Source of the DNA: Candidatus Thorarchaeota archaeon
Lineage (GTDB): Archaea; Asgardarchaeota; Thorarchaeia; Thorarchaeales; Thorarchaeaceae
Direction of reading: 5' to 3'
DNA length: 64,000 nt
Assembly (NCBI GenBank): GCA_020348985.1
Contig: CP070761.1
Span: forward strand, 3,093,243-3,157,242
Below, piece after piece: positions 49,264 through 64,000 of this stretch. The notes beneath the pieces are model-generated. The model saw nothing but the letters and a program-made list of their open reading frames with translations. It did not search any database and was not told the origin of the DNA. Position 1 is the first letter of the stretch. Every line of letters begins with the position of its first letter. The position numbers were made by a program, and so were the translations under genes.

Positions 49264-50574
49264 TTACTTGTATTCCACTGTGACAAGGTGAGCACTGCAA
49301 CTGATACAGGGGTCATAGGCCCTAGCAATCATCTCAAACTGAAGCTCGAGATCCACCGTGGTCTTTGTCGAAATCAGTCTCTCTCCAGATTCACGAATGA
49401 ACTCCTCTACGTCATCAAGGAACATCGCAGTGGGTGTAACGTAGTCAGCAGCCACAGCTCGGCCATTCTCAATCATGTAGTGATGAATGAGAGTCCCCCT
49501 TGGTGCCTCGACGGCACCGGTCCCGACACCACTCTCCCGGTTTGGCTCGGCTGTTTCAGGTTCCTTGAGAGTCGTCAAGCGATCGATGGTTTCGATCACG
49601 CCCTCCAACGAATAGACCTGTTCGATTGCCTGGGCGAAATTGTTGTACAATGGATTGCGTAGCCATCTATCATGGATAAGACCGTCGTAAGCCTTTCTTG
49701 CCTCACCTTTCAGTCGTTCACCCAAAAGATTCACGCGCGCCAATGCGCCGACGGTAAAGGGCCGTCCTCCGTATGAGCTCCGTTTGGCAAAGCTATGACT
49801 CACAACACGCTCTTCTATGACACTCTGATAGTCCTCGGCTGGGTGCTCCTTACCATCCGAAGTAATGAGAACATCACCGTAGTAACCGTATTCATTATGT
49901 GGCGGCTTGCAGCAGAGAAACTGAGTATCACGTTCCATGTGATCTGGAATCTCAAGGTCTGCCAGAATCTCGATTGTTTCTAGAGCGAAGGCAAGCCCGT
50001 CTTTGGCTTCCGTCTGTATCGAGAGAAGGCACTCCCGATCAGGAAGCTTCCCGAATCCTCCTAATACTGGATTCTCTCCATGAATCATCCGACCCCCGAT
50101 CGCCCTCATTATCTTGTTGCCGAGGGCTTTCATTTGGAGCGCTTTCGTCACAATCTCGCCATAGTCCACTGCCATTTCCACGGCATTCGTGTAGCCAAAG
50201 AAATCAGGCAGTGCAAGCATATAGAGATGAAGGCTATGACTTTCAATGATCTCTCCGTGATGCATCAGGTGTCGGTACAGGTCAGTGACTTCAGGAATCC
50301 TGACATCAAGCGCTTTCTCCAATCCTCGCAGACTTGCGTACTTGTGGGACAAATTGCAGATTGCACAGATACGTGGAACAAGACTAAGGATTTCTTCAGG
50401 TGTCTTTCCTATCACAAGTGTTTCAAAGAGCCGGGGGCCTTCTAGAATCTGTACTTCGACATTTATGATCCTATTGTCCTCTATCTCAACTCTGATGCCG
50501 CCATTCCCTTCTACTCTTGCAAGCGGCTTGATTTCGATTGTGTCTCTCTTTGCCACAGAATCACCTCTTCCCAC
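49264..50574 (-). CDS. hydA: Group 3b NiFe hydrogenase (sulfhydrogenase) alpha/large subunit
   Basis: ARVEG, RICAICNLSH (L1), EAPRG.L.H, AYDPCISCSAH (L2) plus short cleavable tail. Confidence 0.95.
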   Translation of the reverse strand: MGRGDSVAKRDTIEIKPLARVEGNGGIRVEIEDNRIINVEVQILEGPRLFETLVIGKTPEEILSLVPRICAICNLSHKYASLRGLEKALDVRIPEVTDLYRHLMHHGEIIESHSLHLYMLALPDFFGYTNAVEMAVDYGEIVTKALQMKALGNKIMRAIGGRMIHGENPVLGGFGKLPDRECLLSIQTEAKDGLAFALETIEILADLEIPDHMERDTQFLCCKPPHNEYGYYGDVLITSDGKEHPAEDYQSVIEERVVSHSFAKRSSYGGRPFTVGALARVNLLGERLKGEARKAYDGLIHDRWLRNPLYNNFAQAIEQVYSLEGVIETIDRLTTLKEPETAEPNRESGVGTGAVEAPRGTLIHHYMIENGRAVAADYVTPTAMFLDDVEEFIRESGERLISTKTTVDLELQFEMIARAYDPCISCSAHLVTVEYK

Positions 50575-51337
50575 TCAGCTTCTCGATATGTGCAAGTATC
50601 TTGTAGCCGCCGAAATTGCGGACTCTGCGGATTATGTCTTCGTGGGGGATTCCGAAACTCTCAAGCAGCCCTAGTTGTTCCTCAAAATTGCCATCAGGGT
50701 TGGGTCCCCAACATCCAACACAAGGAAGTCCATTGTTGGGACAGGCGGAGTGACATCCACCCAGTGTTAGAGGTCCGAGACAGAACTTCTGGTCGAGAAG
50801 AAGACATAGGTTCTCGTTCAGTTTGCATTCATGACATACAGGGTGAGGAAATTCCTCAGGGTCTGCTCCATGAATCAGTCTGGCGATAAGTGCCATTGCT
50901 TGAGACTGACTTATCGGACAACCAGGGAGATAATAATCTACGCTCACTACTTCATCTAGGGGGGCTCCTTCAACAGGATTGGTGATGAACTTGATATCAC
51001 CATAGACCTGTTTGAGCCTTCTTGCGAAGCTGCCATCTTTGGCGAACATCGCCTGGGGACCGCCGGAGACTGCGCAATTACCGATAGCCACAAGTACTCC
51101 AGCTCGGTCTCGGATTTCCTTGATGTGCTGTCTTTCCTCTTCAGTACTGATACTACCTTCTACGAATGCAATGTCAATCTCCGTTTCAAGCGGATTGCTC
51201 GAAGCCATGACGAAAGATCTCATTTCAACTGCATTGAAGAAATCGAGCAATCGGTCTTCCGTGTGGATGATAAGAAGCTGGTCACCAGCACAGCCTGTGA
51301 ATCCGTAGATGCCTACTCGTGGCTTGTATTCCGGCAT
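50561..51337 (-). CDS. hydD: Group 3b hydrogenase delta/small subunit
   Basis: FTGCAGDQ, EGSI, GNCAVSGG, PGCP, CHEC..CLGP..GC..CP..PCVGCWG. Confidence 0.92.
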   Translation of the reverse strand: MPEYKPRVGIYGFTGCAGDQLLIIHTEDRLLDFFNAVEMRSFVMASSNPLETEIDIAFVEGSISTEEERQHIKEIRDRAGVLVAIGNCAVSGGPQAMFAKDGSFARRLKQVYGDIKFITNPVEGAPLDEVVSVDYYLPGCPISQSQAMALIARLIHGADPEEFPHPVCHECKLNENLCLLLDQKFCLGPLTLGGCHSACPNNGLPCVGCWGPNPDGNFEEQLGLLESFGIPHEDIIRRVRNFGGYKILAHIEKLSGKR

Positions 51338-51338
51338 C

Positions 51339-52190
51339 TCAAATCAACTCCCTAAAATGAAGAGTATCCCAGTATGTGAAGATGGGACCATCTATGCAGG
51401 TGTAAATATGATCTAGTGCACAGTGTCCACACTTGCCTACTCCGCATTTCATCCTTCTTTCGAGCGTCATCTGAATCATGTTCTTCGGTATCTTGAGCTT
51501 AAGTAGCTCCTTGATCACAAACTTGTACATGATTGGGGGACCGCAGACTACTGCGGTAGTGGTCTGAGGATCGATTTTGGGTAGCTTCTGAAACAGGCTC
51601 GTGACCACTCCTGTATTCTCGGTCCAATCTCCTGTAGTGTCCTTGTCAACACTGTATAGGCAATCAATGTCTTCTCTCGCCTTGATCTGGAAGAACTCAT
51701 TCTTGAAAAGAAACTCGTTGGGATTCCTCGCCCCATACAGAAAGTAGAGTTCGTCGAACTGATCTCTGTTGTCTAGGACGAAGTAAAGAATAGAACGGAG
51801 AGGGATGACGCCGAGGCCACCCGCAACTATGATAATGTCACGTTCGACCATCGGCTCAATTTTGAACCCATTTCCATACGGGCCACGCAGGTAGACAATA
51901 TCGTTGTCCTTCTTCTTGAAGAGCGCCCGCGTTAGATTCCCGGTTCTCCTAATTCCCATTTCGAGAATGCCCGGCCTGCTTGGCGTGGAGGAAATGGAGA
52001 ATGGAGCTTCTCCGACGCCAGGTATCGACAACATAGCGAATTGACCCGGCACGTAGTCGAACGACATTGCTCTGTTCATGTCTATGAAGCGAATCTGAAA
52101 GAACCGATGATCCTTGATAAGATCATACTGCCTTACTATTCGGGCTGGTTCTGGTAGAAACGGGTTCTCAATCTGTTCTGATAGACTCAT
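51339..52190 (-). CDS. hydG: Group 3b hydrogenase gamma subunit (FAD/NAD(P), 2Fe-2S)
   Basis: PGQF, EAPFSI, RGPYGNGF, GGLG..PLRS, CGPPIM, ERRMKCGVGKCGHC..C.DGP. Confidence 0.92.
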   Translation of the reverse strand: MSLSEQIENPFLPEPARIVRQYDLIKDHRFFQIRFIDMNRAMSFDYVPGQFAMLSIPGVGEAPFSISSTPSRPGILEMGIRRTGNLTRALFKKKDNDIVYLRGPYGNGFKIEPMVERDIIIVAGGLGVIPLRSILYFVLDNRDQFDELYFLYGARNPNEFLFKNEFFQIKAREDIDCLYSVDKDTTGDWTENTGVVTSLFQKLPKIDPQTTTAVVCGPPIMYKFVIKELLKLKIPKNMIQMTLERRMKCGVGKCGHCALDHIYTCIDGPIFTYWDTLHFRELI

Positions 52191-53275
52191 TCTTCAGGCA
52201 CCTCACAGCTGGTTAGTGCTTCAGACACCGTTAGCACATTGATGTCCACAGGGCAGGTTTCGACACATCGGCCGCAGCCAACACACGCAGGTGAACCATA
52301 CTTGTGGGCAAATGCCTTTAGCTTGTGAGTGTACCACAGCTTCAATCGATCTGCCCGAGCGTGTCTAAAGTTATGACCTCCTGCCACCAAGCTGTAGTCT
52401 GCAAACATACAGCTGTCCCACATTCTTTCTCTCCGTCCCGAGGTCTCTGTGGCCAGATCAAGGACGTCTGTAACGTTGTAACAATTGCAGGTGGGACACA
52501 CCATTGTGCACTGGCCACATGATAGGCACTTCTTTCCGAAGTAGTCCCATATTTCGCTCTTGTAACTCAGTTCTATGATGTCTGGCATGTCTCGGAAGTT
52601 GAATGACTTCTTGAACATCCTATTGCGTTTCTCACGCCACTCGATGTAGATCTGGATATCTTCATGAGTTACATTCTCATCAAAGAAATCCTCTTTCTCC
52701 AGAATCATATCATAGCCGAAACTTGAGCCGACCCAGACTAGATAGAAGTCAGTCAAGTCTACAAAGAAGAGGTCGAATCCTTCTGCCACAATATCAGTTC
52801 CAGTAGATCTGCATAAGGCGTTCTCCGCCGGGAGACAAGAGAAACCGATGATTGCCGAGTTCTTCCTCAATCCTGCATAGTATGGATCTGGCGGATGAAC
52901 GAGGAATACTTCATCAAGCTTCAGGATTCCGTGGATCTCACAGGGATGAACTCCAATGATGACTCGTTTTTCAAAGATGGAATAATCGGCCTCAAAGCCT
53001 CTGCTGTCAAACCGGAACATGTCGAATCTCATTGGATGGAATAGTCTCTTCAATGGGAGTAGAGTATTCTCACCATCAAGAACCAGCTCATCATAGCTCT
53101 CAATAGGAGCGTATTTGAGAATGCCGCTTTGTCGCTTCGGCCCATAGAGTGCTCCAAAGCCCTCAAGACCCATGAGGAACTCCTTTAGGAAATCTGGCTT
53201 CATTTTCAGTATGCGCACGTGTGGCACCTCGACCTTGTCTTCATCTGAGGATTCTGATGGATTCCCCAAGAACAA
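52187..53275 (-). CDS. hydB: Group 3b hydrogenase beta subunit (4Fe-4S)
   Basis: GVHPCE, CLSCGQCTMVCPTCNC, RMWDSC, GGHNFR, CVGCGRCVETCP. Confidence 0.92.
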   Translation of the reverse strand: MFLGNPSESSDEDKVEVPHVRILKMKPDFLKEFLMGLEGFGALYGPKRQSGILKYAPIESYDELVLDGENTLLPLKRLFHPMRFDMFRFDSRGFEADYSIFEKRVIIGVHPCEIHGILKLDEVFLVHPPDPYYAGLRKNSAIIGFSCLPAENALCRSTGTDIVAEGFDLFFVDLTDFYLVWVGSSFGYDMILEKEDFFDENVTHEDIQIYIEWREKRNRMFKKSFNFRDMPDIIELSYKSEIWDYFGKKCLSCGQCTMVCPTCNCYNVTDVLDLATETSGRRERMWDSCMFADYSLVAGGHNFRHARADRLKLWYTHKLKAFAHKYGSPACVGCGRCVETCPVDINVLTVSEALTSCEVPEE

Positions 53276-57871: not shown

Positions 57872-58807
57872 TCAGAACGGTTGTGAAAGACCCTTCTTTG
57901 CACCAGGCTGTTGCTCCAAGATTCTTACAATCTCTAGGTGACCATTACGTCGAGCGTACAACATTGCAGTCATGCCGTCTTCAGTGTCAGTCCCTGATAT
58001 GGCCACATTTGGGTCTGCACCTTTCTCAAGCAGCATCCTCACTATATCCTCGTGCCCTTCTCCTGAGGCAAACATGAGAGCAGTGCCATTCACTAATGTC
58101 TTCATGTTCACATCCGCACCATTCTCCAATAGAAGACTGGTGATATCCACATGTCCTTGTGCCGCTGCTTGCATCAGAGGAGTCCACCCTGCCGAGTTGG
58201 TGCAATCCACGTTCGCGCCGTTTTCTAGTAGAACACGCACAATCTCCAGGTGCCCCCTCAGAGAAGCCCAGACAAGGGCGGTCATTCCACGACTGTCGGT
58301 GGCCTCGAGATCTGCTTTGCTATCTATCGCGTCAATGACATCCTCAAGTGTCCCGTCATGGGATGCTTGAAGCAGCTTGGCGGTGGCAGCTTCCATTCCG
58401 TCTGTTGATGGCTTGACATGAGCAATCCTGTATTCCCTTAGCATATCCACAATTTCAGGCAGGCCATACGCTGACATAGAGGCTACGTTGATCATATCGT
58501 TCAGAAGTCGTTCAGGGATATCCTCTGCTCGATCTAGTAGAAGCTCCACAATGTCAGAGTGACCGTCTCGGGCCGCGAGATGAATGGGAGTCATGTCGAT
58601 TCCGTTCAGTATCAGCAAGTCAGCACCGGCATCGATGAGCAGCTTCACAACTTCTATGTGCCCTTTGCTTGAAGCCAAGTGCATAGCGGTGTCACGGAAG
58701 TCCTCACTTGTGACATTCACATCAGCTCCTTTTTCGAGGGCCTCTCTCACGCCTGCAAGATTTCCGGATTCTGCGTGCGTGAGTAGCGCTTCATCTTCTG
58801 GTTTCAT
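57872..58807 (-). CDS. Ankyrin repeat protein
   Basis: About 8-9 repeats of G.T(P/A)L..A...GH..IV..LLE.GADVN. Confidence 0.95.
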   Translation of the reverse strand: MKPEDEALLTHAESGNLAGVREALEKGADVNVTSEDFRDTAMHLASSKGHIEVVKLLIDAGADLLILNGIDMTPIHLAARDGHSDIVELLLDRAEDIPERLLNDMINVASMSAYGLPEIVDMLREYRIAHVKPSTDGMEAATAKLLQASHDGTLEDVIDAIDSKADLEATDSRGMTALVWASLRGHLEIVRVLLENGANVDCTNSAGWTPLMQAAAQGHVDITSLLLENGADVNMKTLVNGTALMFASGEGHEDIVRMLLEKGADPNVAISGTDTEDGMTAMLYARRNGHLEIVRILEQQPGAKKGLSQPF

Positions 58808-58934: not shown

Positions 58935-61166
58935 GTGATGCAAACTTCTAGAACTGAGTTGCCTAGCCCCTGGGAGAGATGGTCAGTGGTAGACATCAAA
59001 GGGCTATTGAAGCGAGCTGGCAAGGGACTTGTTATAGCAGCAGCAAGTATCGCAGCCGGGCTCACCTTAGGTCCCGTTGCTGCAACAGCCGTCGGAGGCT
59101 TTGTGACAAGGAAGTTTGGAGAGATCGGCCTAACAGTAAGTGAAAGGCTCATTCAAGAGCATGTTCAGGACGCTGTGATGGCGGGTCCACATGGCATTGC
59201 CAGGCTTGTAGAATCCAGAAACATGGAAGTTCTCGCTAACGACGTGGCCGCGGAAACTGGCGTGGCAAGCGAGGAGGCTCATGCCGCCGTTCAATACGCT
59301 TTGCGAGACCTGCAGACGACAATGGGCTCTGTTGTACATGAGATGCAGAATGACAGGGGCCTGCTAATGGCGGCGCTTCAACTGGCACGCGAAACCGATG
59401 CAAAGATCGATGCCCTCAGTGAGCAGTCTGCACAAACTCAGGAGACTTTGGAACAGGTTCAGTCGATTCTTCTATCGATGGAGAGACAACTCGATAGATC
59501 ATATCGTAGTGTGATGGGATCCTTTGCCGATAGGTCTGTGCTGGGGTTCGACCGGCTTCTCATGATAAGTCGTCTACAAGAACAGAACATGACACTCTCC
59601 TCCAGATTCGATGTAGAGTACGATCCCGCCCTCTATGTTTCACGCCAGCAGGACGAATCTGTATTCGATGATTTCATGTCTCACGCGGGGATGACTGATC
59701 GGAATGTATTCCTTACTCTGGGAGATGTCGGAATGGGCAAGACATGGTTCCTAGCTCGACTGGCGGAAAAAACGCTCGAGGAGAACATTCCAACATTCTT
59801 TGTCCCACTGAGACACGGAATTCGCGGTTTGACAGGCATATTCCAGACTGGTTCAATACCTGAGCTTGTCACGTTGCTTGATTCGATTCTTGCTAGAGAA
59901 GGCAAAAACGCGTACATCTTTCTTGACGGACTGGACGAAATGCCATCCAGAGAAGCAAGGACAGTACTCAGCGGAGTATCAACTGCGCGGGTGGGAACGA
60001 TCTCTTTTGTGCTTTCTTGCAGATTGGCGGATTGGACATCAAATCCAATGATTGTGCAGAGCTGCCACGACTTGGAGCACTACATACACCAGAACTCCAT
60101 GGCAGCTTCCCGGGCGCGCTCAAGAGGGGTCAGTACGCCTCTGTCAGTGATGATGTCGGAATTCACTGAACAGGAACTTGTTGCAGCTCTGGAACGGTAC
60201 GGAATTCCAGCACCACTGCCAGAGGATATTCGAGATCTTCTGAAGAAGCCCTTCCTACTGAGACTTATCTCACGCAAGTACTCGCAAACAGGGAGGATGC
60301 CAAGTCCCGATTCGCCTGAGTTTCTTGATCTTTTTGCAGGAGAGCAGGAACAGGTACACACAGTGTTGGGAAGACTCGGCGTTATCACCGAAAGAGACAC
60401 GCTGTATGAGACCGTGGAGCAGTTTATTGACTCTGGTGCAGACTCTCTCTCATTGTCTGAACTCAAGGACCTGGACCCAGATGAGCCGACATTCCGTACA
60501 TTGGTTTCTTCGGGTCTTCTAGAACTCAATGTAACCAGGCTGGGAACAGCGGTCTCGTTGAGCACCGACTTTATGCTGCCGCTCATGACATTAGCCATTA
60601 TGCGTCACAAATCCAGACCAAGACGCTATAGGCAATTGCTCGATTCTGCGCAGAGATGGATACCGGACGTAACCCAGAAGGTTGTGGACCTACTTAGTGG
60701 TGTAGAAGGGACGCCAGCCGAGGTGCCAACTCTGCAGCTAGATCAGAGAGCGGAGACTCTCCGTGACCTACTAGAACAGAAAAGCTTCAAAGAACTGCCC
60801 GAGTTGAAGATTCCACCTTTCGTGGAATCCTCTGGCGCGGCAGAAGCTGACGAAGCACTAGAAGAAGTGGAGCAACATCTTAGGAGTCTGAACGATAACG
60901 ACGCTGAGGTCCGGCTAGCTGCTATTGATGCCCTCGGGAGACTACGCGAACCTAGCGCGGTGGTGCCACTAATAGAGGCACTTCAGGATGAAGACCAGAA
61001 GGTCAGAGCAATGGCTGTCAGATCACTTGGTCTTCTAGCTGACGAAAGAGCTGTTGATCCTCTTCGGCGCCTAGCTGACACAGAAGAGGTTCAAGACATT
61101 GCTATAAAGGCCAGATGGGCTGCAGACAGCATAGTGGACAAGCAGAGAAAGAAGAAGAGCGAATGA
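58935..61166 (+). CDS. NACHT/STAND-like P-loop NTPase with N-terminal hydrophobic/coiled-coil region and C-terminal HEAT repeats
   Basis: GDVGMGKT Walker A, IFLDGLDE Walker B, LSCR sensor, PFLLRL helical domain; ~3 HEAT/PBS repeats (VRLAAIDALG, VRAMAVRSLG). Confidence 0.85.
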   Translation: MMQTSRTELPSPWERWSVVDIKGLLKRAGKGLVIAAASIAAGLTLGPVAATAVGGFVTRKFGEIGLTVSERLIQEHVQDAVMAGPHGIARLVESRNMEVLANDVAAETGVASEEAHAAVQYALRDLQTTMGSVVHEMQNDRGLLMAALQLARETDAKIDALSEQSAQTQETLEQVQSILLSMERQLDRSYRSVMGSFADRSVLGFDRLLMISRLQEQNMTLSSRFDVEYDPALYVSRQQDESVFDDFMSHAGMTDRNVFLTLGDVGMGKTWFLARLAEKTLEENIPTFFVPLRHGIRGLTGIFQTGSIPELVTLLDSILAREGKNAYIFLDGLDEMPSREARTVLSGVSTARVGTISFVLSCRLADWTSNPMIVQSCHDLEHYIHQNSMAASRARSRGVSTPLSVMMSEFTEQELVAALERYGIPAPLPEDIRDLLKKPFLLRLISRKYSQTGRMPSPDSPEFLDLFAGEQEQVHTVLGRLGVITERDTLYETVEQFIDSGADSLSLSELKDLDPDEPTFRTLVSSGLLELNVTRLGTAVSLSTDFMLPLMTLAIMRHKSRPRRYRQLLDSAQRWIPDVTQKVVDLLSGVEGTPAEVPTLQLDQRAETLRDLLEQKSFKELPELKIPPFVESSGAAEADEALEEVEQHLRSLNDNDAEVRLAAIDALGRLREPSAVVPLIEALQDEDQKVRAMAVRSLGLLADERAVDPLRRLADTEEVQDIAIKARWAADSIVDKQRKKKSE

Positions 61167-61229: not shown

Positions 61230-64000
61230 TCACTTACGGAACATATCGATTGTTATCGTTCGTCCACAGTATTGACACTCGATGGCTTGGCCACTCTTGA
61301 TCATTGTTACTTCATCTGTGGCTAGAGTGCTACCACAATTCATGCATATCCAGGCATCTATTCCTTTGGCAATTTCATCAATCGTCGTAGGTAGCATGGC
61401 CGCATCCTCACCAAGTCCCTCAACGATTACTTTCGAAGCCTCAGCATCTACTGGCCCCGTAATCACGATTCGCACTGCAACCTTCTTTCGTGTATACTTG
61501 CCTTCGGCCAATCCACGGATTGTACCCCTGAAGAGCCCCTCCTCTGTTGAGCTCTCCGCTTCAAGAATGTGAAAGTTCCTCTGTGGTAGCAGCTTCTCAG
61601 CTTTCGTGAAGAGGACTTCGGGATTCCATTGTACGACTTGCTCCTCTCGACTAGCAGACATTTCGCCCAGCATTAGTTCGAAGTCCTCCATTGTGGTCTG
61701 AAGAGGCTCAAGAAGATCACAGACTGACCGAATCAGGAAGGGCTCTACTTCGACGGTTTTGAGTTGATTGTGATGGTCAATGTAGGACACAGATGCGAGG
61801 ATCTTGCCCTCAACACAATCCTTTGTGGGAATGAATGTAAACTGCGGCGACCTGAATCCATCGGGTTCGATTCTTGCGAGCTTCTTTACAGTCTGATCTG
61901 GGAGTTCCATGCAGTCCTCAGGGTATGCTATGATTGTCACAGTAACGTTGTTGATAACATATGGACTATTGTTGACGATCTTCACTTTGTATTCGAATTT
62001 GCCACCGACGGGTGCGCATCCTCTGAGTACTTGAACTCCTTCTGGTGCGGCCTCATCTGGTTCCGTAGGTGGTGCTGGCACAGGAACATATGGCGGAGGC
62101 CCCTTGGGTCTCCTTCTGGACATCACAATAGCTATTAGGACGAATATTCCAATCCCTCCAACCATTAGAATCGGCCACAAGCCCATGAAGGGACCACCGT
62201 CATCGGGAGGCGTGGTAGTGGTAGTAGTTGTTGTCGTAGGTGTTGTTGTCGATGCGAGGATGGTTAAGGTGACTATGCTTGACGTCATATGCCCTCTTTG
62301 ATCCACCAATTCCAGCCGTACTGCGTAGGTGCCTTGCGTCAAATCATCCAGATAAGTTCCGGACGCCACGACATCTGCACCCCCCCAATCAAGCTGCACC
62401 ACTTGAGTATCATCGATGAAGATCCTGTAGAGGCTAGGATCTCCGTCCGAACAGTGCCAAGTTATCGATCTGCCGGACACATCCTCGGAGAACTCAGCAG
62501 GTGGTCCCACGGATCCCTCTTCGATATACGGTGGAGCATACGCACCCCTAACAACGTAGTGTATCACCTGTTTTACGAAGTTCCGACCATTCAGGGGCTT
62601 TGTGTAGTAATCATCCTCGTACATCGGACCATAATCGCCATAAGGCGAGGCGCCTGAAACAACGAGAGCACTGGTTGCTTGTGATTCTGCACCGCCCATG
62701 TGGGTCTCTATAGTGGCTGCGACAAATGAACCAGTCTCACCTACAACATGAGCCATAGGCAATGATTCTGGAGATTGGTTGATTACCTGTGCAGAGGCAT
62801 TATAATAGAGTACTGGGTGTACATTGGCGATTTGGAATGTCTCTAGTGAAACGGAGTCAACGCCGTGGCCAGGCGTATCGCTGTTGCTACCATATAGGAG
62901 TGTAGGTCCATGCATCAGAACAGCGTCAACGCCTCGCACTACATTTGCCACGTAAGCATCAGTGCTAGTGCCTGTGGCAATAACCCTGTATGCCGTATAT
63001 GCGTTCGAGACAGTATCTGAAACTCCACAATACTCTGGGTACACATGAGACCCAACAGCAGTGAGTAGTGCTGTCATGTTTTGGTTTATGTAATCGCCCG
63101 CGGCTGGTAGAGCTGTGTAGTCGGAGTCGCACCCAACCCAAAGGAGCTTGTGTCCCGAATTGAACCAGTCTACCACTGCAGTTATCTCAGAAGCCAAGAA
63201 CCCGTTGTCCTGACCTTCAATAGAACTCACCAGAAGAGCAGCCGCATTCGTAAGCACTGAGGAGTTCAATCCCCCTCTTGCGAAGATAACCGTATAGCCC
63301 ATTGTTGTGAGAAGCGCCTCCAATTCGGCATCAGATTCGGTTTGGCTCGTGGTCTGGGAATCACTTTGCCCATGAGAATAGTCGATAACAATCGTTCCCG
63401 AGCTTGAAGGATAGACCCAGACCCAAGCGGTCTCTATTCCTGAGAATCCGTCACTATCATCCACTTTCAGAGTGACGTTATGCAAACCGATGGATAGACC
63501 GTCAACATCTGCTACTATCTGTGATCCATCCCAGACCCCGTCGATGAGTATCCCATCGTCAATCCAAACTCTATAGAAGGAGGGATTGTTGTCGTGAGGA
63601 GTCCATGTTATTGAGTGGCCAGTAGTTCCTACTTGATAGTTAATCTCACTCGGACGGTCTATCCAGGGTCGAGGAGATACGACCTGTAGAGATGGACCAG
63701 CTATGGATCCAGTAACAGAGATGGATCCGTTTAGGATTCCGGCCTTGAAATCGTCCACTTCATCCAGAACACTCTGCGGGATATCCAAGAGTGTGGAGTT
63801 GAGCTCGTAGCCCACGCCACCATTCTCGATGTCAAGGACGTGATTCATCCCGCCCTGAAAAGTGTCATATATCGCATGTCCAATTATGTTGCGAACGGCA
63901 ATATCCGCGTGTTTCAGGTATGTTGTGAGGACAACTGTTGGCGGAACTGGATTGCCAGGATCTGCGCAACCATAATGCATGGAAGGGAAATCAGTACCAA
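61230..64000 (-). CDS. 5'-truncated multidomain single-pass receptor: BMP-type binding-protein C-terminus, Ig-like, GIFT/GATase-like, Ig-like, Thr linker, TM, appendage-like domain, Zn ribbon
   Basis: Frame stays open to the window edge (GTDFPSMHYG..); VLTTYLKHADIAV..FQGG..IENGGVGY; IVIDYSHGQ; TTTPTTTTTTTT; TM followed by SRRR; CMNC..CQYC. Confidence 0.8.
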   Translation of the reverse strand, partial: GTDFPSMHYGCADPGNPVPPTVVLTTYLKHADIAVRNIIGHAIYDTFQGGMNHVLDIENGGVGYELNSTLLDIPQSVLDEVDDFKAGILNGSISVTGSIAGPSLQVVSPRPWIDRPSEINYQVGTTGHSITWTPHDNNPSFYRVWIDDGILIDGVWDGSQIVADVDGLSIGLHNVTLKVDDSDGFSGIETAWVWVYPSSSGTIVIDYSHGQSDSQTTSQTESDAELEALLTTMGYTVIFARGGLNSSVLTNAAALLVSSIEGQDNGFLASEITAVVDWFNSGHKLLWVGCDSDYTALPAAGDYINQNMTALLTAVGSHVYPEYCGVSDTVSNAYTAYRVIATGTSTDAYVANVVRGVDAVLMHGPTLLYGSNSDTPGHGVDSVSLETFQIANVHPVLYYNASAQVINQSPESLPMAHVVGETGSFVAATIETHMGGAESQATSALVVSGASPYGDYGPMYEDDYYTKPLNGRNFVKQVIHYVVRGAYAPPYIEEGSVGPPAEFSEDVSGRSITWHCSDGDPSLYRIFIDDTQVVQLDWGGADVVASGTYLDDLTQGTYAVRLELVDQRGHMTSSIVTLTILASTTTPTTTTTTTTTPPDDGGPFMGLWPILMVGGIGIFVLIAIVMSRRRPKGPPPYVPVPAPPTEPDEAAPEGVQVLRGCAPVGGKFEYKVKIVNNSPYVINNVTVTIIAYPEDCMELPDQTVKKLARIEPDGFRSPQFTFIPTKDCVEGKILASVSYIDHHNQLKTVEVEPFLIRSVCDLLEPLQTTMEDFELMLGEMSASREEQVVQWNPEVLFTKAEKLLPQRNFHILEAESSTEEGLFRGTIRGLAEGKYTRKKVAVRIVITGPVDAEASKVIVEGLGEDAAMLPTTIDEIAKGIDAWICMNCGSTLATDEVTMIKSGQAIECQYCGRTITIDMFRK
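62211..62250 (-). repeat. Poly-Thr low-complexity linker (ACN codon run)
   Basis: gtggtagtggtagtagttgttgtcgtaggtgttgttgtc on + strand. Confidence 0.8.

Follow-up and report, generated by a model that had tools for sequence, protein, structure and literature searches.

How a protein built like an ordinary-looking surface receptor comes to carry, on its inner end, a domain resembling the ears (appendages) of eukaryotic coat adaptors is the question raised by the end of a 64,000-nucleotide stretch of the genome of Candidatus Thorarchaeota archaeon (GenBank assembly GCA_020348985.1, contig CP070761.1, positions 3,093,243 to 3,157,242; this whole stretch is called the window below). In eukaryotic vesicle coats, ears act as hubs of interaction, and the origin of the ear bears on the rise of membrane trafficking. 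The gene concerned, referred to here as the ear gene, is one minus-strand open frame (window 61230-63998, 922 codons) that remains open at the window edge. Its product is best read, with a probability of roughly 0.6, as a type I surface protein that has a ligand-binding ectodomain and a cytoplasmic ear serving as a built-in docking handle.

The tail of the protein is confidently predicted, from its modeled fold, to form two lobes like the appendages of adaptor protein (AP) complex adaptins and COPI, to which it is homologous or, at the least, isostructural. The AlphaFold2 (AF2) model of the last 273 residues, built on a 44-sequence alignment, reaches a mean predicted local distance difference test score (pLDDT) of 94.7 and a predicted template modeling score of 0.78, and places an N-terminal Ig-like β-sandwich, packed on a C-terminal α/β platform, in the order characteristic of appendages. 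When this 273-residue model was searched with Foldseek, ranks 1-14 were all taken by appendage domains or by COPI coat entries containing them, with beta-COP (9qpq_H, E = 7e-11), alpha-adaptin, beta2-adaptin, and gamma-COP as the top matches (E = 7e-11 to 6e-7) and with appendage alignments of 235-253 columns, which span both lobes. A search independent of Foldseek, conducted over 48,161 representative chains, ranked alpha-adaptin, beta2-adaptin, the AP-4 platform, and gamma-COP first, and every two-lobe match was an appendage or BBS9. In protein-language-model features, a line of comparison only partly independent of the structure searches, the nearest named clusters are eukaryotic adaptin C-terminal domains (scores 0.75-0.78, to be taken as leads only). 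A sequence-only reading of this DNA had likened the tail to the ears of adaptins, beta-COP, and the BBSome and had placed a sandwich, a platform, and a Zn ribbon at about 61353-62039; the likeness is borne out by these rankings, and the three elements were located at 61233-62036. The platform lobe starts with a near-invariant V-C-D-L-L-x-P and has conserved N-F and G-K-Y-T-G-K loops, while the zinc ribbon, whose four Cys are kept in the family alignment, is predicted to be folded (pLDDT 87-97). Compared with the appendages of COPI beta-/gamma-COP and AP-2 alpha/beta2 (PDB 9qpq_H, 3hs8, 1w80, 1b9k, 1e42, 1pzd, and 1r4x) and the AP-4 beta platform (2mj7), the module shows only 8-16% identity, has no Pfam match, and bears an extra C4 zinc ribbon. 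The two also differ in position: the eukaryotic appendage lies behind a HEAT-repeat trunk, at the C-terminus of the HEAT-solenoid large subunit of an AP/COPI-F core, whereas the archaeal module lies behind the transmembrane helix of a surface protein.

The 5' end of the ear gene is lost because the end of a contig cuts the gene: the window is followed by 100 N and then by the end of the record, and CP070761.1, presented as a 'single contig' genome, consists of 131 contigs separated by 100-N spacers. As the record is a concatenation of contigs and itself ends in 100 N, joining its end to its start to recover the missing sequence was ruled out. The full gene can therefore not be followed beyond position 64000 in the DNA itself; the lost part is nevertheless supplied by a Thorarchaeota orthologue, P0152 (1196 residues, named 'BMP family lipoprotein' by NCBI), which is 77% identical to all 922 residues from its own residue 272 to its end. 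By this comparison, the missing N-terminal part amounts to about 271 residues, comprising a hydrophobic signal peptide and most of a Bmp/PnrA domain. No other full-length orthologue was found among 30 species representatives. From the N-terminal end, the part of the protein encoded in the window is laid out as follows.

63771-63998, minus strand: C-terminal remnant of a Bmp/PnrA-type solute-binding domain (residues 1-76; weak Pfam Bmp match together with P0152)
63411-63668, minus strand: first Ig-like β-sandwich (residues 111-196)
62532-63398, minus strand: GIFT-type α/β domain (residues 201-489)
62256-62495, minus strand: second Ig-like domain (residues 502-581; AF2 strands at residues 408-487 of the model, with OST48/Wbp1 alignments reaching model residue 500)
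62205-62252, minus strand: poly-Thr/Pro stalk (residues 583-598; from the translation)
62121-62180, minus strand: single transmembrane helix (residues 607-626; hydropathy 2.59 over 19 residues, the sole such segment)
62037-62120, minus strand: RRRPK basic stop-transfer and Pro/Glu-rich flexible linker with PPPY (residues 627-654; from the translation)
61725-62036, minus strand: appendage-like Ig β-sandwich lobe (residues 655-758; residues 6-109 of the AF2 model, pLDDT mostly >90)
61356-61724, minus strand: appendage-like α/β platform lobe (residues 759-881; residues 110-232 of the AF2 model)
61233-61355, minus strand: C-terminal C4 zinc ribbon, CxxC...CxxC (residues 882-922; Pfam Zn_ribbon_9 below cut-off, E = 3e-4)
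61230-61232, minus strand: stop codon, at the end of the zinc ribbon

The ear is by no means confined to this protein. A phmmer search with the module against 1.84 billion cluster representatives returned 444 relatives at E ≤ 1e-3, 152 of them at E ≤ 1e-30, which is much more than chance would produce. When the best 150 representatives were examined, 95 proved to carry a membrane helix at most 150 residues upstream of the ear, and 113 of the 150 end no more than 15 residues from the module. In the large single-pass members, the ectodomains include SBBP, LVIVD, or PQQ propellers, β-helices, Big/PKD (Ig/PKD) domains, glycosidase-like barrels, and SBP_bac_5; for example, a 1194-residue ear protein of genome G182 has an SBBP propeller in place of the Bmp-type ectodomain. 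[quoted passage not shown] Across a sample of 300 genomes from the phylum, 71 of the 76 that belong to the same family have the module, as do the only other genome of its order that was searched and members of six further Asgard families (62/68, 5/5, 6/7, 1/4, 1/6, and 1/1 genomes); the same query did not find it in 22 other families of that sample. The sequence-only reading had proposed listing other carriers within the genome, and eight copies were found there. Between the orthologues, the ear is the best-conserved part of the protein, with 90% identity in the sandwich lobe and 87% in the platform lobe compared with 66-81% for the parts of the ectodomain. Conversely, 35 of 38 homologues of the ectodomain (P0152-P0189) end 2-13 residues past the membrane helix and two are fragments; P0152 is the only one among them with an ear, which is also found on P0018 from an earlier search. 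Because these sister proteins lack it, the ear has the look of a cassette that was attached to an ordinary surface protein with a C-terminal anchor. Taken together, these surveys show that the ear is a tail reused, and strongly conserved, on many Asgard membrane proteins unrelated to one another and on soluble scaffold proteins.

Several remote or unusual members of the family deserve mention in their own right. P0123 (780 residues, from a Candidatus Njordarchaeum guaymaensis cluster) has an ear at residues 375-603 followed directly by an EAP30/Vps36 winged-helix domain at residues 609-738 (E = 1.5e-9, over cut-off), and is thus a physical fusion of an ear with ESCRT-II. P0141 (705 residues, JGI metagenome), a remote family member, combines HEAT repeats (a weak Adaptin_N match, E = 0.006), an ear at residues 217-447, and a 258-residue Cys-rich extension, so that its trunk-then-ear order is that of adaptin large subunits. 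In P0083, P0099, P0050, and P0089, a C-terminal helical extension of about 95-145 residues with a short hydrophobic end replaces the zinc ribbon, and it may serve these otherwise soluble LRR/TPR ear proteins as a tail anchor or as an amphipathic helix that binds membranes. Ear genes also often stand in tandem arrays of 2-5 short membrane-anchored copies of 350-480 residues (G000:C1:2650991-2654850, with L022 and L023, as well as G255:C20, G219:C15, G252:C51, and G279:C144), which suggests recent local duplication. Finally, a Promethearchaeota cluster of the ESM Atlas (788 residues) that carries the domains PCI, E3_UFM1_ligase, and DDRGK is close to the ear in feature space, at a score of 0.76 that should be taken only as a lead; this is a hint of ear-like domains in UFM1-ligase-like Asgard proteins.

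The side of the membrane on which the ear resides can be judged from charge. In the ear protein, the helix is flanked by acidic PPDDGG on one side and RRRPK on the other; the Thr stalk lies N-terminal of the helix, and the zinc ribbon, together with 8 of the 12 Cys, lies C-terminal of it. Across the 95 family members with an adjacent membrane helix, the mean count of Lys plus Arg within 18 residues of the helix is 3.67 on the side of the ear compared with 0.46 on the opposite side, and these residues are more numerous on the ear side in 80 of the 95. Because RRRPK follows the helix, acidic residues precede it, and the family-wide bias of Lys and Arg is to the ear side, the ear is placed inside the cell, as a cytoplasmic module. 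The sequence-only reading had named two outcomes that would count against it, a tail without the sandwich-plus-platform fold and a tail lying outside the cell; the AF2 fold and the charge bias of the family point the other way in both cases.

Outside the membrane, the protein resembles known families only in part. The remnant of the Bmp domain in the window, made up of the last ~75 residues of that domain, gives a weak Pfam match limited to residues 21-76 (E = 0.11, 11.9 bits), while residues 65-332 of P0152 match PF02608 over the Pfam cut-off (E = 3.5e-38, 131.7 bits). With the AF2 model of residues 95-600 (37-sequence alignment, mean pLDDT 82.7), which shows two Ig-like domains with a large α/β domain between them, this agrees with the extracellular Bmp/PnrA end and Ig-like modules described from sequence, as does the GIFT-like domain, claimed at about 62545-63399 and located at 62532-63398. 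The latter has the α/β fold of IFT52/GldG/OST48, and a close homologue exceeds the Pfam IFT52_GIFT threshold; standalone GIFT surface proteins are abundant in Thorarchaeota. The GIFT-type domain and the second Ig-like domain resemble the luminal part of OST48/Wbp1, but identity to OST48/Wbp1 and IFT52/GldG is only 10-13%, and the ear protein differs from OST48/Wbp1 in having additional Bmp and Ig domains at its front and, where OST48/Wbp1 has a short tail, a folded ear; no evidence was found for a role of the ear protein in the oligosaccharyltransferase. In P0152, the N-terminal domain is that of Bmp/PnrA lipoproteins, from which the protein departs by about 800 more residues after the binding domain and by a C-terminal helix, rather than a lipid, as the anchor. 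A further Thorarchaeota protein with a full Bmp/PnrA domain (1250 residues, L033:6189-9941, minus strand, G005:C46) joins it to two PLD-like (nuclease/phospholipase D) domains and PKD outside any ABC (ATP-binding cassette) operon, and it seems plausible that this fusion is a surface nuclease coupled to nucleoside capture.

Poly-Thr/Pro stalks are typical archaeal extracellular linkers, and a Thr-rich stalk precedes the membrane helix in most homologues of the ectodomain. Such a stalk, one transmembrane helix, and a Pro-rich juxtamembrane segment with PPPY had all been claimed from the letters and are all present in the translation, although the PPPY is not a feature of the family. The linkers of the 95 helix-adjacent members have a median length of about 52 residues and are first basic and then Pro/Glu-rich; PPxY occurs in one of them, compared with 1.1 in shuffled sequences. 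Given this lack of enrichment, the PPPY was dropped as a WW-domain/ubiquitin-ligase signal; a search for WW domains in the genome gave no match, but the control of that search was equally silent. In the same 95 linkers, DPF/W, FxDxF, WxxF, and YxxΦ are not enriched, and [DE]xxxL[LI] is enriched only mildly (12 vs 7.0 ± 2.0).

Convergent with the ear gene in the window is a plus-strand gene (58935-61166) for a 743-residue protein with an N-terminal hydrophobic/Gly-Ala segment, a STAND-type nSTAND_NTPase5 domain (below cut-off), and C-terminal HEAT/PBS-lyase repeats. The STAND gene adjoins a minus-strand gene (57872-58807) for a 311-residue protein made nearly entirely of repeats of the eukaryote-like ankyrin family (Ank_4, E = 1e-56). 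Further away, a minus-strand cluster (49264-53275) encodes the large subunit of a NiFe hydrogenase along with a small subunit (Oxidored_q6), an Fe-S subunit that binds FAD/NAD, and a 4Fe-4S protein, and bears likeness to cytoplasmic group 3 hydrogenases.

Appendages in archaea have been described before. Adaptin-appendage regions composed of Ig and TBP (TATA-binding protein) lobes were reported in archaeal ESCRT loci, including the 'Meth_adaptin' of Methanosarcinales, with one appendage protein that has a Zn ribbon, one with a GOLD domain joined via a transmembrane segment, and Asgard multidomain appendage proteins with Vps28-C, longin, TPR, Ig, and PCI (Makarova et al. 2024, mBio 15:e00335-24). 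Alpha-adaptin C-terminal and Beta2-adaptin appendage platform domains were found, sparsely, in Asgard genomes (Eme et al. 2023, Nature 618:992). The ear protein belongs with the former in being an archaeal protein with an Ig plus TBP-fold appendage region, in its case with both a Zn ribbon and a membrane link, and the Asgard combinations with longin, TPR, Ig, and PCI recur in remote members of its family. It differs from them in that they were found via ESCRT neighbourhoods or fusions, while the ear gene and its seven paralogues are not ESCRT-linked and fusions to EAP30/Vps36 or PCI occur in remote relatives only. The domains of Eme et al. 2023, in turn, come from Pfam-type detection and are 'not fused to each other', whereas the ear family escapes Pfam and has both lobes in one chain. 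Two later structure-based surveys make no mention of appendages. The claim to novelty is thus weakened by the published cases, the membrane-linked and the Zn-ribbon one included. Relative to the literature searched, what is new is an ear preceded by the Bmp-Ig-GIFT/OST48-like-Ig ectodomain, the demonstration of sister proteins without the ear, and the family-wide topology test; nor was any account found there of many surface proteins having the ear as a shared tail.

In the interpretation that we favor, the outside of the protein consists of a Bmp/PnrA-type ligand-binding domain, probably for nucleosides, and after it an Ig-like, a GIFT/OST48-like, and another Ig-like domain, all borne on a Thr-rich stalk; inside the cell, a flexible Pro-rich linker is the leash for a two-lobed ear capped by a zinc ribbon. 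By analogy with eukaryotic ears, the ear would act as a protein-docking platform that ties a subset of surface proteins to a cytoplasmic partner, and the docked partner could serve in sorting, turnover, clustering, or positioning. The occurrence of the same ear behind many unrelated ectodomains and on soluble proteins fits a generic docking module. Because remote members have ESCRT-II-type, PCI, and longin-like domains as fusion partners, ESCRT-linked components or the sorting and turnover machinery are the best candidates for the partner.

Several observations weigh against this interpretation. All structures of the ear and the ectodomain are predictions. Among the Pfam models sought (Alpha_adaptinC2, Alpha_adaptin_C, B2-adapt-app_C, and the coatomer platform families), no appendage family matches the whole protein or the 273-residue tail at E ≤ 1, and none is among the 25 most-matched of 130 Pfam families in the 44 members scanned. 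A phmmer search of the PDB gave no match, and the family profile retrieved from the PDB only a non-significant 60-residue match to the C-domain of beta-arrestin-2 (E = 0.04), which was taken as noise or generic E-set similarity. Since there is no link at the level of sequence, homology to eukaryotic appendages rests on fold and architecture. With respect to partners, the ESCRT cluster of the genome lies at 2.9697-2.973 Mb, and EAP30, Snf7, and Vps4_C matches at ~2.97 Mb, 1.86 Mb, and 2.27 Mb; none of the eight ear genes stands beside the ESCRT cluster or an EAP30, Snf7, or Vps4_C gene, with the caveat that the contigs of the record follow an arbitrary order. Nor do the ear copies have a recurring neighbour: the genes around the paralogues are unrelated metabolic ones, and those next to p3, p5, and p6/p7 encode aldehyde ferredoxin oxidoreductase, Fe-S proteins, GNAT, radical SAM, TrmB, and β-helix proteins.

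The absence of a sequence link invites the thought that the likeness to ears is convergent, an Ig sandwich having come to sit on a helix-grip lobe, and that the tail is an anchoring or oligomerisation device by which surface proteins are held on a scaffold, cytoskeletal or envelope-organising, that has no relation to trafficking. We consider this unlikely. Of the 48,161 chains, only appendages and BBS9 match both lobes in the same order and packing; the protein-language-model features point independently to adaptin C-terminal domains; and the fusions within the family are to trafficking-type partners, namely the ESCRT-II winged helix, PCI, and longin-like domains.

Another proposal, made in the sequence-only reading, is that the protein binds cargo outside and recruits a vesicle coat inside, as a primitive device for receptor-mediated uptake. 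The ear does have a coat-adaptor fold, the ectodomain has a ligand-binding Bmp domain, the genome encodes ESCRT-III, Vps4, and ESCRT-II, and the remote member P0141, with HEAT repeats before its ear, has the order of adaptins. What the proposal lacks is a coat: no AP/COPI core was detected in the genome, the AP sigma chain (Clat_adaptor_s) was not found, albeit in a search whose control was also silent and which is thus a weak negative, and the Adaptin_N matches look like generic HEAT repeats, the model also matching in Methanosarcina. The ear is not linked to ESCRT by gene order, the linkers carry no enriched ligand motifs, and the ear is found on soluble proteins and on enzymes and adhesin-like ectodomains unlike cargo receptors. 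In addition, the ear of eukaryotic AP-2 recruits accessory proteins and is itself neither the coat-binding nor the cargo-binding part, and Asgard archaea are not known to carry out endocytosis. The proposal of coat recruitment and uptake was not upheld, and we regard it as improbable.

Equally doubtful is that the protein is an ordinary membrane-anchored solute-binding protein of an ABC transporter whose tail contacts or regulates the ATPase or permease. The Bmp/PnrA family (PF02608) is the solute-binding component of nucleoside ABC importers, the name given by NCBI to the orthologue accords with this, SBP_bac_5 occurs in relatives of the ectodomain, and the upstream DNA lost at the contig end leaves room for transporter genes. 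Yet the ear is common to propeller, β-helix, and glycosidase-like proteins that are not solute-binding, and to soluble proteins; the related long Bmp fusion described above stands outside an ABC operon, and most relatives of the ectodomain that are of the solute-binding type have no ear. Least probable is a transmembrane sensor, in which a ligand outside would alter the oligomeric state and the ear with its Zn ribbon would bind a signalling protein, ubiquitin, or nucleic acid: the receptor-like layout with a ligand-binding head, the weak matches of several family Zn ribbons to Vps36 NZF, UBZ, and Sec23/24 zinc-finger models, and the STAND NTPase and ankyrin neighbours are suggestive, but all those matches are below curated cut-offs for models that cross-match freely, the neighbours are convergent or unrelated and not conserved with other ear copies, and the family contains no kinase, cyclase, or other output domain.

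The Asgard archaea are the closest archaeal relatives of eukaryotes, and it is there that the ear is found hard-wired to the inside of ordinary-looking surface proteins. A speculative extension, which we put forward only tentatively and would not expect to hold in full, is that these archaea possess a class of surface proteins with their own adaptor ear, which recruits ESCRT- or GTPase-linked machinery to sort, remove, or cluster them, and that the ear began as a receptor tail or a free docking module and later joined the HEAT trunks of AP and COPI. If the ear was indeed an early receptor tail, it would represent a concrete pre-eukaryotic stage in the coupling of cargo to adaptors. The 273-residue ear is a defined, expressible bait for what is attached to the inner side of Asgard surface proteins: should its partners be ESCRT or small-GTPase components, they would be direct evidence of selective membrane-protein sorting before eukaryotes, and should they be of another kind, the ear fold would be older than its role in trafficking.

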